DNA of 46,716 nt from the NCBI GenBank assembly GCA_018580065.1, contig GCA_018580065.1_4845.1. The stretch is one strand, 5' to 3'. The stretch's first letter is position 1. Every line of letters starts with the position of its first letter. This DNA comes from a phage. The translations under genes and the position numbers were made by a program. Below are positions 3,205 through 31,573 of the stretch, piece after piece. The notes below the pieces were generated by a model, which did not search any database, was not told where the DNA came from, and worked only from the letters and a program-made list of their open reading frames with translations.

Positions 3205-3542
3205 GTCACCAGTGCGAAATCAGGTGGCTCAGCGCGATTGAACGTATTGCCATAATTAATCACATTCAGAATCTGATTTGCGCCAGCAACCAGCGGGTCA
3301 GCTTCTGTCACCGTGCCAATCATGATGTAGTCGCCAGTCTTAGCACCAACATACTCAGTCCAGAACGTATTCTTCTGCACAATCTCATTGCCTTTCGCAT
3401 CGGTAGATACATCATCGTTAAAACCATAATCGCACATGATGCTCACTGGCTCATCAAAAGTCGGCTTGCCGTACTTGTCGGTTCCGGTCTTGTGCCAGAT
3501 AGTGCATGGCTGCGTGTAAGAAAACCGAGAGATTGAGGTCAT
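3201..3542 (-). CDS. head closure / head-tail adaptor protein (putative)
   Basis: 113-aa ORF in the connector string. Assignment by position and size. Confidence 0.6.
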   Translation of the reverse strand: MTSISRFSYTQPCTIWHKTGTDKYGKPTFDEPVSIMCDYGFNDDVSTDAKGNEIVQKNTFWTEYVGAKTGDYIMIGTVTEADPLVAGANQILNVINYGNTFNRAEPPDFALVT

Positions 3543-4168
3543 AAAACATTCCTATATGAACGATTTTTCTTGATGTGCTGGATAGCACCTTTAGACACGC
3601 CAAACTCATCAGCAAGTGATTGTGAGTGCTCTCCATTTGCTAGTCTGGTTCTCACCTCCCTAACCTGATCATCAGTTAATTTAGCGTGTTTTGGAGTCCT
3701 GCCGAACATTGGGTTTTTCTCGCCAATTCTTGATTGCGATATTTTCTTTCTTGTTTCTTCTGTTTTTGGACCCATAGAGCAAGGTGGTGTTTTCCCATAC
3801 CAGCAGTTATTCTTTCCCATCCTGCTTTTGCTCATTTTAGCTTTAGCCACATCTGTTGCCTGAACCCCCAAGCACGTACCAGCTATTTTTGCCACATTAT
3901 ATTGAGGACTTAGCTTGTCTATGTAGAATTGCTCTCTACTAAGCAGGATTGATTCATCGTTAACAATTTCAAGAATTGAAAATCTGAATAATGACTCGCC
4001 ATATTTTGCTCCATCATTATACAACCTGTGTGGGCTGTGCATGCCATTCCTCATTTTGTATCGATGCACAGCAATTCTATTGGTGTAGCTTATTGTTGAA
4101 CCAACATAAATCTCTTTAGTTATTGTATTTTCAATCTGATATACAGCCATCACTCTCTTCATTTGCAC
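3539..4168 (-). CDS. GIY-YIG homing endonuclease
   Basis: N-terminal VYQIEN...IYVGST...R..H GIY-YIG motif, repeated NUMOD-like K/G-rich modules, C-terminal HTH. AT-rich insert between connector genes. Confidence 0.85.
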   Translation of the reverse strand: MQMKRVMAVYQIENTITKEIYVGSTISYTNRIAVHRYKMRNGMHSPHRLYNDGAKYGESLFRFSILEIVNDESILLSREQFYIDKLSPQYNVAKIAGTCLGVQATDVAKAKMSKSRMGKNNCWYGKTPPCSMGPKTEETRKKISQSRIGEKNPMFGRTPKHAKLTDDQVREVRTRLANGEHSQSLADEFGVSKGAIQHIKKNRSYRNVL

Positions 4169-5408: not shown

Positions 5409-5438
5409 GTTTAAATCTCCTGTTGTTTGATTAGCATG

Positions 5439-5447
5439 ATTTTAGCA
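5439..5447 (-). promoter_or_regulatory. late-type extended -10 promoter (TGCTAAAAT)
   Basis: Reverse complement ATGCTAAAAT, about 30 nt upstream of the ATG at 5408. Confidence 0.4.
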
Positions 5448-5455
5448 TATTCCTG

Positions 5456-5499
5456 TTGACGTAGATTGATGGTGTGTTTATAGTTAGTGACGTAGAAAC
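5456..5499 (+). promoter_or_regulatory. sigma70-like promoter TTGACG-17-TATAGT with two TGACGTAGA motifs
   Basis: TTGACG 5456-5461, TATAGT 5479-5484. Motif copies at 5457-5467 and 5488-5498, the second just downstream of the -10. Confidence 0.6.
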
Positions 5500-5524
5500 A
5501 ACAATAAATGTTAGAGGTGATGAA

Positions 5525-5785
5525 ATGTTTGATATTGATAACCCAAGTGATGACAAAGCCAAGCTGATTGATGCGGTCGCTTGCAGTTTCGCATCTTGCC
5601 AGACAGAAGGTGAATATCAGGTTGTGAAAATGTGCATTGTTGAGTTCTTCTCGGCAATCAACATTCCTGATGATGAGGCGGTTGATATTCTGCTGTGTGC
5701 CGCTGGGAGCTCCACTGAGGCGGACGAGTGCATTGATGAACTGGTTGAGGAGTTTGGCGGCATTTTCCAGGGTGATGAGGAGTAA
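5525..5785 (+). CDS. very acidic 86-aa early protein (DNA-mimic candidate)
   Basis: GAGGTGA RBS then ATG 5525. By hand count 22 D/E versus 3 K/R. First gene after the promoter. Confidence 0.7.
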   Translation: MFDIDNPSDDKAKLIDAVACSFASCQTEGEYQVVKMCIVEFFSAINIPDDEAVDILLCAAGSSTEADECIDELVEEFGGIFQGDEE

Positions 5786-5787
5786 TC

Positions 5788-5979
5788 ATGGCAAACATGT
5801 ACTACTGTATGTTCCGCAATACCGTGATTGATTTTCGTGATTGCGTTGATGCAATTGGTAATGCTGAGTCTATTGACGAGTTCAGCAATTCAGAACACAA
5901 GTCTGCCGAGCGCCTGTACCATCTGGCTAATGAGTACGTCGCATATTACGAGCAATTGTTAGAAGAAAGTGGTGAATGA
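5788..5979 (+). CDS. hypothetical acidic protein
   Basis: 63-aa ORF immediately following the previous gene. Confidence 0.6.
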   Translation: MANMYYCMFRNTVIDFRDCVDAIGNAESIDEFSNSEHKSAERLYHLANEYVAYYEQLLEESGE

Positions 5980-5980
5980 T

Positions 5981-6790
5981 ATGAAAACACTAAGCAAAAT
6001 CTATTCAGACAAAGAAACACGCAACGGCATCGCTGTTAACAAAACCTATCTCGTGCCAGTGGAGCAAATCTATCTGGAGCCGGGATATAACATCCGTGAA
6101 GCAGATGAGCAGCATGTTGAATATTTTGCGCAGTGCTGGGAGTCCGGCCAGCCATTACCAGCATTAACAGTTATTCCAGACGAGAAGGGAATCCGCATTC
6201 TTGATGGTCAGCATCGCTATCTCGGCGCATTGCGTGCCATTGAGCGCGGAGCACCAATCGTTCGAATTGAGTGCAAGGATTTCACTGGCGACGAGGCGGA
6301 CAAAATCGCCTTCATGGTGTCATCAAGTCAGGGTAAGCAGCTTGACCCGTTTGAGCGCGCAAAGGCTTACACGCGACTGAAAGGCTTCGGCTGGACGAAT
6401 GAAGAAATCGCAAAAAAGGTAGGGCGCTCAGTATCTGACGTGCAAATGCATCTGTCTCTTGGTGATGTTCCGGCGGAAGTAAAAGCGCGAATCAGCGCCG
6501 GGCAAATCAGCTATGCAAATGCCGTAGCAGTAACTCGTGAGCATGGTGACGATGCGGTAAAGGTTATCGACGAGGCGGTCGAGGAAGCCAAAGCGCAAGG
6601 TAAGGATAAGGTCACTGCGAAGGTGCTGAAGTCGAAAAAGATTAAGCCAGTAGACCGTCTGATTGAGTTATTGAAGCCAGCAGACCACGTGATTCTTCCT
6701 GCTGGTCATGTGGTGGCAGAGGATGAGGAATTTATCCAGATTCCTGTTGCTGACATTCACGAGGTTATGGCAATTCTGGAGAAGATGTGA
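5981..6790 (+). CDS. ParB-like N-terminal domain (ParB/Srx) protein with HTH
   Basis: YLEPGYNIRE and ILDGQHRYLGA motifs of the ParB N-terminal domain. WTNEEIAKKVGRSVSDV HTH. Confidence 0.8.
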   Translation: MKTLSKIYSDKETRNGIAVNKTYLVPVEQIYLEPGYNIREADEQHVEYFAQCWESGQPLPALTVIPDEKGIRILDGQHRYLGALRAIERGAPIVRIECKDFTGDEADKIAFMVSSSQGKQLDPFERAKAYTRLKGFGWTNEEIAKKVGRSVSDVQMHLSLGDVPAEVKARISAGQISYANAVAVTREHGDDAVKVIDEAVEEAKAQGKDKVTAKVLKSKKIKPVDRLIELLKPADHVILPAGHVVAEDEEFIQIPVADIHEVMAILEKM

Positions 6791-7281
6791 TGAACACAAC
6801 TAAAATAAATTGGGGTGATATTTTTCATTATGAAAATGGGGTGCTTAGGTGGAAGCACCAAAAAAGAAAAATGCTAAGTGGCTCTTTAGCTGGGACAATT
6901 GCAAATACAGGATATGTAATCATATGCGTTGATTACAAAAAATTCTTGGCTCACAGAATCATATGGGAGATGTTTAATGGACCAATCCCTGACGGGATGC
7001 AAATTGATCACATTAACCATATTCGTAATGATAACCGCATTGAAAACTTAAGGCTGGTAAGCCATATAGAGAACCATAGAAATCTTAGTAGGCAGAAAAA
7101 TAACAAATCAGGAAGAACTGGCGTTAGCTTTGACAGGAAGAGTGGGTTATGGAGGGCTTATGTATCAAAGATGCATATTGGTTTTTTTGCCAATAAAGAA
7201 GATGCAATATCCGCTAGAGAAAAAGCTGAAACTTCAACTGGGTATCACGAGAATCACGGAGTAAAAAGTGAACGTTTATGA
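6790..7281 (+). CDS. HNH homing endonuclease (HNH_3 plus AP2-like domain)
   Basis: LAHRIIWEMF...IDHINHIRNDNRIENLR...H..N motif, then GVSFD...WRAY AP2-like segment. AT-rich. Paralog of 17264-17749. Confidence 0.85.
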   Translation: MNTTKINWGDIFHYENGVLRWKHQKRKMLSGSLAGTIANTGYVIICVDYKKFLAHRIIWEMFNGPIPDGMQIDHINHIRNDNRIENLRLVSHIENHRNLSRQKNNKSGRTGVSFDRKSGLWRAYVSKMHIGFFANKEDAISAREKAETSTGYHENHGVKSERL

Positions 7282-7441
7282 TTTTCTCGTCAAGCAACTC
7301 CGCGCCAAGTTGCCTGACATTGACCAGATGGCAATTGATGCGGCGATTCAATATTACAAGCGCAATCAGAGCGCAAAGAAGGGTGGTATTTTTGAAGAAT
7401 GCCTGAAGGTTGCAAAACAGCACATGATTAAGGTGAAGTGA
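7268..7441 (+). CDS. hypothetical 57-aa protein (GTG start)
   Basis: Hand translation MNVYDFLVKQLRAKLPDIDQMAIDAAIQYYKRNQ... GGAG 7 nt upstream of the GTG. Stop overlaps the next ATG. Confidence 0.45.
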   Translation: MNVYDFLVKQLRAKLPDIDQMAIDAAIQYYKRNQSAKKGGIFEECLKVAKQHMIKVK

Positions 7442-7977
7442 TGAAACTAAAAATCAGCAAATTATTACTTGAGTCAGCATTAATATTTCAGGCGCGAAAC
7501 GATGTTCGCTACTACCTGAATGGCATCTGCTTCATGCCTGATGGTCGTATTGTCTCAACTGACGGTCATCGCGCATTCATTGGTGGCAGCCATGACAACA
7601 AGCTGACAGAGAATGTGATTATCAAGATGGTAAAGTCGCCAACAAAGCGATATGAATACGCCATAATTGATACCAAGTCGAAAATTGCAACGTATCATGA
7701 TGAAGCTGGCGTGATGGTTGGTACTGGTATCTGCGAAGAGATTGATGGTCGATTCCCTGATATTGATCGCGTCATTCCTAAGCAGACCTTGCCAACAGAG
7801 GAAATTGGCTTCAATGCTGGTTACCTTGTGGATATCGAGAAAGTGGCGAAGCTGTTTAACCCTAAATTCTGTGGGGTTAAGTTTGAACTGAATGGAAACA
7901 CAAATGCCGCAGTTTGCTGTCTTATCGCGCCATCTGGCGAGGCGGCGAAGATTGTTGTTATGCCTATGCGTCTGTAG
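7441..7977 (+). CDS. truncated DNA polymerase III beta-clamp (DnaN)-like protein
   Basis: Motifs VRYYLNG, STDGHR, DGRFPDIDRVIP, IGFNAGY and C-terminal VVMPMRL match E. coli DnaN domains II-III. Only 178 aa. Confidence 0.8.
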   Translation: MKLKISKLLLESALIFQARNDVRYYLNGICFMPDGRIVSTDGHRAFIGGSHDNKLTENVIIKMVKSPTKRYEYAIIDTKSKIATYHDEAGVMVGTGICEEIDGRFPDIDRVIPKQTLPTEEIGFNAGYLVDIEKVAKLFNPKFCGVKFELNGNTNAAVCCLIAPSGEAAKIVVMPMRL

Positions 7978-7981
7978 CAAT

Positions 7982-8010
7982 AAAAAACCCGCATAATGCG
8001 GGTTTTGTTT
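7982..8010. terminator. rho-independent terminator
   Basis: Stem ACCCGC/GCGGGT, loop ATAAT, flanked by an A-run and a T-run. Between convergent genes. Confidence 0.8.
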
Positions 8011-12597: not shown

Positions 12598-13052
12598 TGA
12601 TGACCTCTTACATTGCGAAGAAGTGAATTAAACAGATTGCCGACGTTAACCTCCTGCTCACTCCATGAATAACGCCATATCTTCTTGTGGTGGTCATAGC
12701 TTCGCGTTACATCGCCGTTATGAAACATGATGCGAATGCGGCTTTTCACGATGCGGTAATCAATACCAGTGGCGGCGCTAATCTCTTTCACCTCTGCGCC
12801 AGCGTTATCAAGCATGTGGCACTTAATCGCATCATCAATACCTGCCGCATCATCAGATATAAAATATTTATACTGCCACTTCCCGCCACGAATCACTGAC
12901 TTCTCGCGGCGAATAAAGCCAAGCGCAAGCATCTCATGCAAACGATGCGTTGTGGTGCTTGAATGCTTTCCTCTGCAATGCTCCTCAATGTATGCACGCG
13001 TTGCGCCGGGATGCATCATAATCACGCGCATGATTTGCGATTTATAATCCAT
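12564..13052 (-). CDS. putative winged-helix DNA-binding protein
   Basis: 162 aa. N-terminal IMRVIMMHPGATRAYIEEH...LHEMLALGFIRRE resembles a MarR-type wHTH. Confidence 0.6.
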   Translation of the reverse strand: MDYKSQIMRVIMMHPGATRAYIEEHCRGKHSSTTTHRLHEMLALGFIRREKSVIRGGKWQYKYFISDDAAGIDDAIKCHMLDNAGAEVKEISAATGIDYRIVKSRIRIMFHNGDVTRSYDHHKKIWRYSWSEQEVNVGNLFNSLLRNVRGHHGEVQTQEARV

Positions 13053-13290
13053 GAGCGCGCTCCTCTACTGCCTGATTAAAGTCTTCGGCGATGTACAGAT
13101 GTCCGTTGCGGGTGTTCCATTTTTTAATTATGACTGATTTCTGTTGATACAAATCAGTTGCAATGCCACACCCCAAGCAAACAATTTGCGATAATCCATC
13201 CTCTCTATCCATTGTCGCATCTCCGCTACCACAGAACGGGCACTCAAGCAATCCTTCATCATTCATCATCGGCATATGTGGTGCGCTCAT
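13042..13290 (-). CDS. Lar-family restriction alleviation-like zinc-ribbon protein
   Basis: LLECPFCGSG...CLGCG...KKWNTR pattern typical of the Lar family. ATGA coupling at 13287-13290. Confidence 0.6.
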   Translation of the reverse strand: MSAPHMPMMNDEGLLECPFCGSGDATMDREDGLSQIVCLGCGIATDLYQQKSVIIKKWNTRNGHLYIAEDFNQAVEERAHGL

Positions 13291-13481
13291 TTCAACCATT
13301 CTCCAATGTTGTTAAATTTAGGCGCATCGCCAGACCAGTCGATGACATCTCTTTGCTGACTGCGCTTGCGTTGCAGACGGTTTCGCACCTCTCGCAGCTC
13401 ACATTCAAGCCATTCACGAGTGCGCTCAACTTCATTCAGTCGCCGGATTAGCGATTGTTCGTACAGTTCGTCATGCGCCAT
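13287..13481 (-). CDS. hypothetical coiled-coil protein
   Basis: 64-aa ORF. Confidence 0.55.
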   Translation of the reverse strand: MAHDELYEQSLIRRLNEVERTREWLECELREVRNRLQRKRSQQRDVIDWSGDAPKFNNIGEWLK

Positions 13482-29243: not shown

Positions 29244-31573
29244 TGATTGGTTATGAAGATTACCGCAAATGTGGCTTCCCTATTATTGGAATCCATGCGA
29301 TGGATATCGACCGAAATTGCACATGCGGTGATCCAGAGTGCAATGCTGCCGGTAAGCATCCGGTTATGAGCAACTGGCAGCTTGGAGTTATATGGGCTGA
29401 TGACCAGATTGAAAATATGGCTGAATATGGTCAGTTGCAGTCATTCGGTGTCCTTGTGAATGGTTATCTGGTCGTTGATATTGACCCACGCAACGGAGGT
29501 AATGATGGATATGAATCGCTTTGTGATGCCTTAGACGTAGAGCTTGCTGACGAAGCTGGTTTTACGGTCAAGACTGGTGGTGGTGGTCGCCACATCTATT
29601 ACAAACTTCCTGAAGGAATAAAGCTGCGCTCTCATGACAGAAGATTTAATGGTATTGACTTTAAATCATCTGGTTTTGTTGTTGGATGTGGTTCTTTTCA
29701 TAAAACTGGAAACTTTTATGAGGCCGAGCATGGATCCCCTTCAGAGATAACTGAATGTCCATCTGAACTTATTGAGCTTTTGTTGCGTCCTGAGAGAACG
29801 GAAGACGAGGTTTTCACGCTTGATAGTAAAAATTACAGCATTGCCGAAATGGAGGATATGCTCAAATACATCAAAGATGGTGATGAGTATGACCCATGGC
29901 TTCATGTAGGTATGGCTATCCACGAAGCTACAGAAGGCAATGGTTTTGAGCTTTGGGATAGATGGTCATCGCAGTTCAGCAAATACAGAGCTGAAGAGAT
30001 GGACGCAAAATGGCATTCCTTTGGAAAGGACGGCGTTAGCGAAAAGATAACAGAAGCAACGCTGGTTTATCTCGCGCAAGAGGGGGGGTGGGTAAGGCAA
30101 GTAACTTTTGAGGCTACGCCAGAGGAAATTGAGAAACTTGAGTCTTTCGAACGAGAGATGGCAATGGGTGTTGGTGAATGCCCTGTAGAGTACAAAAGTG
30201 TTGATGTCCGTTATCCGCCTGGATTTGTTGGTCGCCTTGCGGCGTGGATTAATAAGAACTGTGCAGAGAAGCGAGAGAATATTGCAGCACTTGCCGCATT
30301 GCATGCCGCATCCATGATTTGCGGTGCGTCATCTGATATTTACCTTACAAACAGGAAGGCTTTACCAAACCTTTTTGCTGTTGGTATCGCTGGTTCAGGT
30401 TCAGGTAAGGGTGATGTCCTTGCTGCGCTACAAAAGATAATTGATTGCTCAGGATTGAGTAAGACAGTTGCCGGTAAGATACGCTCAGAGCGTGCGATAT
30501 ATGAAGGTCTTTGCGCTAACCAGATGTTTAATATCATCATGGATGAGATTGGGATAAAACTTGGGAGTGTTGTTGGTCAGAAAGTAAGCGAGTACAACAT
30601 GGCAACCGCTGGTGCGATCATGGAGGCTTACACGTCAGAAGTTCTTTATTGTGACCAGCGGGTTACTGAGGATTTCATTAAGTCTTTTGAAAAAAGAAAG
30701 GCTATGCTGTTGATGGCTATTGAGGAAAATGAAATACAGGCAGACCCCGTTGACATTAAGTGTCAGTTTGATGATGTGATAAACAGAATTGACGGAGCTA
30801 TAAGGAATCCATTTTTTTCAATCTTTGGTGTATCTACTGATGATCAGTTTAAGCGCCTTATTACAGAAGAAAACATTAAGTCAGGCCTTATGGGTCGCGC
30901 AATGATTATGCAGGAGTTACAGGAGATTGCTGATGAAAACGAAAACGTAAACTACTGTGATCTACCTATGGATATGCAACTGACCATAAAAACAATAATA
31001 AATGGCGGAACGGCTGGGCACAAAAACTGGACAGACTCAATAATCAGTCAAAAAGAAAGACGGATTATAAAAGCCACGCCTGAAGTTTCTCAGCTCGCCA
31101 AGGAGTTCTTCTCATGGATTAAAACCGTTGCAAGAAAGCATGTAGAAAATGGTACTGGTTATCACCCATTGATAAACAGATGCGCCGTGAAGGTGGCAAA
31201 GATTGCTGGAATTCTCGCGTGCGATACTGGCGTCATAACCATGGAGCACTTGAGATATGCGGTAGCATTAACAATTAAATCAACAAGCGATCTGATGATG
31301 CGTGCCGACAGTATCGCCGGAGCGAAGTCTAAAGCTATGGAAGAGAGAATTGAAGGCATTTTCTCCATGGTTAAAGAATATGTGAAGCGAGGAATGACCA
31401 AAACAGCAATGGTTAGAGGGGTGGCAAAAGAAGGTGGTTATAAACGTGCTGATGTCGAGAGGTGCGTAGAGAAGTTGTTATCAGATGGTGTTATTTGCAT
31501 TGATGAAAATGCAAAAAGAACATCTCACAACGTAATAATTTACAAATTAACAAATGATGAGGTTGAGATATGA
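29240..31573 (+). CDS. bifunctional primase-polymerase (Prim-Pol) / PriCT-2 / P-loop helicase-like replication protein
   Basis: N-terminal C.CGDPEC..AGKHP...VVDIDPRNGG...GGGRHIYY Prim-Pol motifs. DEYDPWLHVGMAIH PriCT-2-like segment. Walker A GIAGSGSGKG. Confidence 0.85.
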   Translation: MMIGYEDYRKCGFPIIGIHAMDIDRNCTCGDPECNAAGKHPVMSNWQLGVIWADDQIENMAEYGQLQSFGVLVNGYLVVDIDPRNGGNDGYESLCDALDVELADEAGFTVKTGGGGRHIYYKLPEGIKLRSHDRRFNGIDFKSSGFVVGCGSFHKTGNFYEAEHGSPSEITECPSELIELLLRPERTEDEVFTLDSKNYSIAEMEDMLKYIKDGDEYDPWLHVGMAIHEATEGNGFELWDRWSSQFSKYRAEEMDAKWHSFGKDGVSEKITEATLVYLAQEGGWVRQVTFEATPEEIEKLESFEREMAMGVGECPVEYKSVDVRYPPGFVGRLAAWINKNCAEKRENIAALAALHAASMICGASSDIYLTNRKALPNLFAVGIAGSGSGKGDVLAALQKIIDCSGLSKTVAGKIRSERAIYEGLCANQMFNIIMDEIGIKLGSVVGQKVSEYNMATAGAIMEAYTSEVLYCDQRVTEDFIKSFEKRKAMLLMAIEENEIQADPVDIKCQFDDVINRIDGAIRNPFFSIFGVSTDDQFKRLITEENIKSGLMGRAMIMQELQEIADENENVNYCDLPMDMQLTIKTIINGGTAGHKNWTDSIISQKERRIIKATPEVSQLAKEFFSWIKTVARKHVENGTGYHPLINRCAVKVAKIAGILACDTGVITMEHLRYAVALTIKSTSDLMMRADSIAGAKSKAMEERIEGIFSMVKEYVKRGMTKTAMVRGVAKEGGYKRADVERCVEKLLSDGVICIDENAKRTSHNVIIYKLTNDEVEI

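Follow-up and report, generated by a model that had tools for sequence, protein, structure and literature searches.

A strongly acidic four-helix protein at an exchangeable first-gene slot of a Skatevirus-like siphovirus, a candidate early decoy

Small acidic early proteins form a familiar class in phages. T7 Ocr (gp0.3), a small, helical and elongated protein of 117 aa that acts as a dimer, is the product of the first gene transcribed by host RNA polymerase. ArdA, carried by plasmids and transposons, is acidic as well and is made early on entry of these mobile elements. T4 Arn, an acidic DNA mimic of about 90 aa directed against McrBC that also binds H-NS, is encoded by an accessory early gene. 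On the lambda gene map ral lies immediately after N, and Ral acts by stimulating modification. Here we describe an 86-aa phage protein that shares features with each of these systems. An earlier note on the same DNA had proposed it as a DNA-mimic or anti-restriction candidate with Ocr and ArdA as precedents. The window, by which we mean the whole stretch of 46,716 nucleotides that was analysed, carries the gene in a region whose DNA is 90-93% identical to Skatevirus-like siphoviruses of Salmonella, Shigella and E. coli. These relatives include BS5, DS8, 64795_sal3, LPST10, seszw and the BASEL phage Bas77, and by this sequence relationship the window is a Skatevirus-like siphovirus.

The gene extends from its ATG to the end of its stop codon on the plus strand (Table 1) and encodes the sequence MFDIDNPSDDKAKLIDAVACSFASCQTEGEYQVVKMCIVEFFSAINIPDDEAVDILLCAAGSSTEADECIDELVEEFGGIFQGDEE. 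The composition first reported for it, 22 Asp/Glu and 3 Lys/Arg in 86 aa, was reproduced: the protein contains 11 Asp, 11 Glu, 3 Lys and 5 Cys, with neither Arg nor His, and has a computed pI of about 4.05 and a charge of about -19.5 at pH 7. At -0.22 charge per residue it tops the acidity ranking of the window's 133 ORFs that reach 60 aa or more, the second rank being held by the adjoining downstream gene. Comparison with orthologues gave dN/dS values of 0.03-0.10, indicating strong purifying selection, and between BS5 and Bas77 the gene has accumulated 19 synonymous and 0 non-synonymous changes. The ORF is therefore a real gene. Its start at 5525 is favoured over an upstream GTG at 5474 by the family alignment. 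In two metagenomic relatives (P0005 and P0013) the 86-aa protein is fused in frame to the C-terminal part of its 63-aa acidic neighbour; one of them retains 78 residues of the 86-aa protein, and in the other its first 46 residues are joined at a shared 'AI' motif. Judged from these fused sequences, there are hints that the two genes may be functionally or structurally related. No paralogue of the 86-aa protein was found within the window. The candidate ORF 185-478, which matched at E 0.065 only and has a signal peptide, was rejected.

Table 1. Coordinates of the acidic protein gene, its operon and the associated regulatory signals. Positions refer to the window; (-) marks copies on the minus strand.
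Feature	Position	Strand	Basis
Sigma-70-type promoter, TTGACG (5456-5461), 17-nt spacer, TATAGT (5479-5484)	5456..5484	+	Promoter scan, 10/12 consensus positions
Operator-like TGACGTAGA, copy 1, overlaps the -35	5457..5465	+	Exact motif copy
Operator-like TGACGTAGA, copy 2, just 3' of the -10	5488..5496	+	Exact motif copy
Shine-Dalgarno AGAGGTGA, GAGG ends 7 nt 5' of the ATG	5513..5520	+	Read from sequence
Acidic four-helix 86-aa protein gene, phrog_14587 family	5525..5785	+	Composition, PHROG match, AlphaFold, dN/dS
Second gene, 63 aa, acidic (net -9), phrog_8760	5788..5979	+	PHROG match
ParB/KorB-like DNA-binding protein (predicted)	5981..6790	+	phrog_1033 E 5e-91; Pfam HTH_ParB, KorB
HNH homing endonuclease gene	6787..7281	+	Pfam HNH_3 E 3e-22
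57-aa gene	7268..7441	+	ORF list
179-aa gene, last in operon	7438..7977	+	Weak Pfam beta-clamp match, E 0.009
Bidirectional intrinsic terminator ending the operon	7984..8006	.	Terminator prediction; annotated terminator in phage Skate
Exact copies of TGACGTAGA, whole window	5457, 5488, 13770(-), 13795, 16555, 23609, 23626, 27962(-)		Motif search
One-mismatch copies of TGACGTAGA, whole window	139, 16584(-), 23530, 27945(-)		Motif search

The protein matches the phrog_14587 profile with residues 1-82 over the 82-position profile (E 1.2e-43), and HK446 gp36 as well as distant members match it too. In PHROGs this family is labelled 'anti-restriction protein', and the label has been copied into RefSeq and Pharokka records; GenBank submitters and NCBI name the members hypothetical. 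In a search for a published source, no paper naming the PHROG was found, and the genome papers merely repeat the annotation. Neither an experiment nor a homology could be traced as its basis, and the label is to be read as unverified. Searches of Pfam and NCBIfam gave no match to the 86-aa protein, in Pfam up to E 10, or to any of 28 family members, and PDB sequences gave none in single-sequence or profile searches; what turned up across these searches was at chance level, for example von Willebrand factor, RAP80 UIM and UBA. The family is small: when 1.8 billion representative proteins were searched exhaustively with the profile, only 32 relatives emerged. Almost all of them measure 68-90 aa; two truncated fragments fall outside this range, as does a repeat protein of 1,583 aa that lies at the E-value limit.

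All 28 aligned family members are acidic, with net charges of -7 to -20, and their alignment displays a hydrophobic core pattern, a near-invariant Cys25 and an invariant Gly61. Among these 28 sequences, D67 is conserved as an acidic position in 100%, E40, E51 and D71 in 93%, and D49, D50, D54, E65, E68 and E72 in 64-82%. The conserved acidic positions alternate with the hydrophobic core pattern along helices 3-4. AlphaFold2 returned a four-helix bundle (helices 7-23, 28-44, 49-59 and 64-78; mean pLDDT 81.6), and a second AlphaFold2 run on a more diverse alignment gave the identical four helices (pLDDT 85.4). In the model, helices 3 and 4 are predicted to be amphipathic with acidic exposed faces. 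Several conserved acids are placed at helix N-termini (around 28-30, 49-51 and 65-67), and part of the conservation may therefore reflect structural capping rather than an interface. Comparison of the 86-aa model with solved structures, Ocr, ArdA and Arn included, found no relation.

The operon headed by the gene is flanked by structural genes of opposite orientation and encodes, in order, the 86-aa acidic protein, the 63-aa acidic protein, the ParB/KorB-like protein, the HNH endonuclease and proteins of 57 and 179 aa, before ending at the bidirectional terminator. The 63-aa gene is present in BS5, Bas77 and SeSz-2 and missing from seszw. An alternative GTG start is possible for the ParB/KorB-like gene at 5969. 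The HNH insert is missing from several close relatives, and its slot is occupied by a DNA methyltransferase in Bas77-80 and by a second phrog_14587 paralogue in SeSz-2. This SeSz-2 protein (gp60, 74 aa, net charge -10), located by fold search and then confirmed by sequence, is a diverged phrog_14587-type paralogue encoded at 30294-30518 (-), after the ParB-like gene of the same operon. Homing-endonuclease-type genes at 3539-4168 (-) and 6787-7281 (+) break otherwise conserved gene orders in the window, and the former is putatively GIY-YIG-like, judging from its sequence. The last gene of the operon bears conflicting labels: RefSeq names it a 'RusA-like Holliday junction resolvase', whereas GenBank entries give 'DNA polymerase III beta clamp'. 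Elsewhere in the window a separate Lar-family gene is found at 13042-13299 (-) (Pfam Lar_restr_allev PF14354, E 2e-11; 61% identity to SeSz-2 gp50), downstream of a TGACGTAGA motif promoter. A nominal restriction-alleviation gene is therefore already present in the phage.

The acidic gene had also been described as the first behind a near-consensus promoter with two operator-like motifs, and this description is accurate (Table 1). Across eight related phages the promoter hardly varies, even where the first gene is a different one. The second TGACGTAGA copy is kept in seven of eight aligned relatives, Skate differing by one substitution (TGCCGTAGA), and the Shine-Dalgarno region up to the start codon is invariant among the aligned relatives. 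Eight exact copies of TGACGTAGA occur in the window where 0.15 are expected, a number reached in 0 of 100 shuffles, and all of them fall in promoter-like intergenic regions. The motif is often embedded as TTGACGTAGA, making a -35, and its copies are mostly found in pairs 17 or 31 bp apart, or inverted. When one-mismatch copies are included, it marks at least six promoter-like regions, each leading a cluster of small genes (48-97 aa); at least six promoters of the window, that of the acidic gene among them, are alike. From the distribution of the motif, these sites look like a phage-wide regulon under one regulator. We infer that the 86-aa gene is expressed early, as the first of its operon. 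Just 5' of the -35, TTAGCAT is directly repeated (5431-5437 and 5442-5448, 11 bp apart), with no variation in any of the eight aligned relatives; the repeat may serve as an UP element, a further operator or part of the divergent leftward promoter.

The slot following this promoter is polymorphic, with at least four unrelated cassettes exchanged exactly at the ATG among near-identical phages. The first gene encodes 123 aa in Skate, a 207-aa 'EaC' in Akira and Bas79, and 114 aa in Bas78 and Bas80, and none of these alternative products is strongly acidic. In the same five phages the flanks of the slot are 88-100% covered at 92-99% identity. Upstream, the promoter, both operators, the leader and the ribosome-binding site align as essentially invariant, and the sequences diverge exactly from the start codon. 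Unrelated genes substitute here between conserved flanks, which is the accessory-region criterion of Silas et al. Bas77 carries a homologue 95% identical to the window protein, from which it differs at 4 loop residues. In the lambdoid phage HK446 the homologue gp36 is located between N and cIII; in Edwardsiella phage Edno5 a family member lies immediately 3' of the N gene, and in a metagenomic temperate phage one heads the leftward early operon, with ERF and YqaJ downstream of it. A Klebsiella Jedunavirus carries a member after a primase/helicase gene, and a large phage has one within a group of small early genes, close to a PARP gene and a weak Gad2-like Pfam match. A SieB-like identity of the neighbour of the HK446 homologue was considered, and no confirmation was obtained. 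The HK446-type gene is present in 58 of 5426 complete E. coli genomes (about 1%). Plasmids gave 2 matches in 72,556 records, both identical to the prophage gene, and an ArdA-like plasmid leading-region ecology was rejected on these counts. Taken together, the exchange at the slot and the contexts of the homologues are typical of an early gene with an accessory or host-interaction role.

Genome reduction of seszw provides a further view of the gene. According to PMC9825161, hypothetical genes were targeted by Cas9-based genome reduction over 300 transfers, and 53 of the 81 seszw genes were removable. The full ORF (seszw gene 19) is retained in all 70 seszw-lineage records of the phage collection. 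Among the seszw records listed, the shortest, seszw_290L (36.5 kb), keeps gene 19 and the ParB-like gene 18 while genes 20, 17 and 16 are lost. Sampled seszw mutants carry the substitutions C19G (P7A, recurrent) and C142T (P48S) in the gene, each of which destroys a CCN PAM, and only 14% of the gene positions lie inside GG or CC dinucleotides. The destruction of CCN PAMs suggests that escape from Cas9 took place by point mutation and not by the deletion on offer. A viable mutant, 230L, carries a 47-bp deletion between TGATGG repeats (approximately positions 5469-5516 of the window) that removes the -10 box, operator 2 and the Shine-Dalgarno sequence and keeps the ORF. Moreover, the known dispensable T7 gene 0.3 is missing from the set scored as removable by this method in that study. 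Because of these two observations the argument from retention is weak. The gene is possibly fitness-relevant in seszw; we do not claim essentiality.

Several features would suit a DNA mimic of the Ocr or ArdA type that blocks type I R-M and possibly BREX. The charge density is Ocr-like, the gene occupies the first position behind a strong host-type promoter, its family carries the 'anti-restriction protein' label in PHROGs, RefSeq and Pharokka records, the lambdoid homologue sits right after N in a position analogous to that of lambda ral, and BREX lies outside the systems tested in BASEL. We nevertheless consider such a role improbable. The absence of any Pfam, NCBIfam or PDB sequence match and of an experimental origin for the PHROG label speaks against it, as does hhalign of the family profile, which gave a probability of 0.2% against Ocr and Arn alike. 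Plating data are available for Bas77-80 (PMC11990801, S1 Data). The EOP of Bas77, which carries the gene, is 0.04-0.1 on EcoKI and 6e-4 to 1e-3 on EcoCFT_I (type I), 1e-5 to 5e-5 on EcoRI, 9e-8 to 2e-6 on EcoRV, and 1e-6 to 7.5e-6 on EcoCFT_II and 1e-5 to 5e-5 on EcoP1 (type III) (PMC11990801). The EOPs of Bas78, Bas79 and Bas80, which lack the gene, equal those of Bas77 within about one order of magnitude in a comparison that is not isogenic, and the BASEL paper calls these phages 'markedly sensitive to RM systems'. Since Ocr-like activity is expected to abolish type I restriction, the restriction of Bas77 by type I systems disfavours an Ocr-like role. A screen of 200 accessory genes in wild ECOR strains with 8 phages (Silas et al., bioRxiv 10.1101/2023.04.06.535777) bears on the same question. 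Ocr, Ral and ArdA emerged from it both as inhibitors of R-M and as triggers of cell death. In that library the HK446 homologue (AFH20664.1), which shares about 40% identity with the 86-aa protein, is entry UDP0194, or orf194; the entries for ocr, arn, ral and ardA served to verify the numbering. For those strains and phages, the genes reported to have a counter-defence or cell-death phenotype do not include orf194. BREX and most newer defence systems lie outside the scope of both BASEL and this screen. Of the proposal made in the earlier note, what stands is a real, extremely acidic first gene behind a host-type promoter with operators. Together with the swapping of the gene as an accessory cassette and the location of homologues after N, this would suit a protein of host takeover or counter-defence. 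The Ocr/ArdA-type role lacks a sequence or fold link and fits poorly with a Bas77 restricted like Bas78-80 and an orf194 with no listed phenotype. The target is probably not among the classical restriction enzymes of types I, II and III.

A factor acting within the phage, one that normal lytic growth would require, also deserves consideration; it could serve the ParB/KorB-like protein, or phage transcription or replication, as a modulator or chaperone. In Skatevirus genomes the acidic gene is always directly 5' of the ParB-like gene and co-oriented with it, the two are kept together in seszw_290L, and an acidic protein is a plausible partner of a DNA-binding protein. We regard such a function as unlikely, however, given that close relatives with the same ParB-like gene have unrelated, non-acidic first genes, that no ParB-like gene adjoins the homologues in HK446, Edno5 and the metagenomic temperate phage, and that mutant 230L tolerates the loss of the -10 box and Shine-Dalgarno sequence of the gene. 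Inhibition of a RecBCD-type nuclease, by analogy with T7 gp5.9 or lambda Gam, would agree with a small, acidic, helical and early protein, with the linear double-stranded ends that the phage presumably exposes, and with the partial Old sensitivity of Skatevirus phages, as RecBCD inhibitors trigger Old. This sensitivity fails to track the gene: on P2 Old the EOP is about 1 for Bas80 and 0.001-0.07 for Bas79, both without the gene, and an intermediate 0.05-0.5 for Bas77, which has it (PMC11990801). Among these near-identical phages the response to Old does not go with the acidic gene, so its trigger or inhibitor must lie in a different variable gene. HK446 already has Abc2 and the trigger gp33 in the same operon, and the fold comparison shows no similarity to Gam, so that RecBCD inhibition appears very improbable. 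A link to Old or RecBCD through the HK446 paper was pursued and abandoned, as gp33 and gp27, and not gp36, are identified there; the HK446 Old study cloned only genes of the recombination locus (gp33, Erf, gp31 and Abc2) as triggers, a set to which gp36 does not belong.

The explanation that we tentatively favour, and that we judge slightly short of an even chance, is an early acidic decoy or inhibitor that binds the basic surface of a protein of the host or of a competing element, with a target probably outside the type I-III R-M enzymes. Host RNA polymerase would probably transcribe the gene from the operator-controlled promoter heading the 2.5-kb operon. The product would be a small soluble four-helix bundle whose predicted exposed faces, those of helices 3 and 4 especially, bear conserved carboxylates. 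Through stoichiometric binding, this acidic surface would occupy a basic, probably nucleic-acid-binding, surface of the target and so neutralise it early in infection. The target might belong to a defence or abortive-infection system other than R-M; a nuclease, or a nucleoid protein such as H-NS, would be further candidates. The gene would be one of several interchangeable accessory cassettes at this position, in a family that also occurs right after N in lambdoid pL operons. In favour of the decoy we count the acidity rank, the conserved acids, both AlphaFold runs, the purifying selection, the ATG-exact swaps and the lambdoid contexts, together with the SeSz-2 paralogue, the retention in seszw and the independent choice of the HK446 homologue as an 'accessory gene' by Silas et al.; against it we count the lack of a reported phenotype for that homologue in ECOR strains, the possible capping role of some conserved acids and the weakness of the retention argument. 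A bolder form of the decoy hypothesis is possible, if doubtful: phrog_14587 might be a new-fold family of acidic decoys, shared by lytic Skatevirus and lambdoid prophages, that neutralises an unrecognised non-R-M factor of the host or a prophage and matters so much in Salmonella that Cas9 reduction never removed it. If this were true, the factor would be a defence or abortive-infection system, or else a nuclease or nucleoid protein that binds DNA through a basic surface, and the SeSz-2 paralogue pair would reflect diversification against variant targets.

What is new here is an uncharacterised member of a known protein class. Skatevirus-type phages are widely proposed for Salmonella biocontrol, and their genome reports carry the 'anti-restriction protein' label. 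Because this label is untraceable and the plating data that are available contradict it, its correction is important for annotation. The locus is also a clean natural cassette-exchange site, where promoter, operators and ribosome-binding site are fixed and the first gene is exchanged at the ATG, and its cassettes are common to lambdoid pL accessory regions. Knowing what this conserved acidic protein targets could bring to light a new interaction in counter-defence or host takeover, for which Bas77 together with Bas78, Bas79 and Bas80 provides ready near-isogenic material.

Comparison with the known systems places the protein near several of them and within none. The likeness to ArdA lies in acidity, presumed early timing on entry and carriage on mobile elements. 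Unlike ArdA, the family is essentially missing from plasmids, the Pfam ArdA domain is absent from all 28 members scanned, the fold is not that of ArdA, and ArdA scored in the screen of Silas et al. whereas orf194 did not. The small size and the accessory early position recall T4 Arn, which is less acidic (-0.10 per residue) and is unrelated in the profile comparison given above. With lambda Ral and Rac Lar the resemblance is one of place, the lambdoid homologue filling the slot that ral has in lambda. The Ral sequence, in contrast, is rich in Cys and Lys/Arg and has no similarity to the 86-aa protein, which gave no match to the Pfam Lar_restr_allev or Ral domains. T7 Ocr differs in being an elongated dimer where a four-helix bundle is predicted for the 86-aa protein, in profile and fold, and in that carriers of the 86-aa gene seem unprotected from type I or III R-M. 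The two proteins share small size, a helical structure and probably a first position under host RNA polymerase, and their charge per residue is similar, -0.24 for Ocr (sequence checked against the supplement of Silas et al.) and -0.22 for the 86-aa protein.
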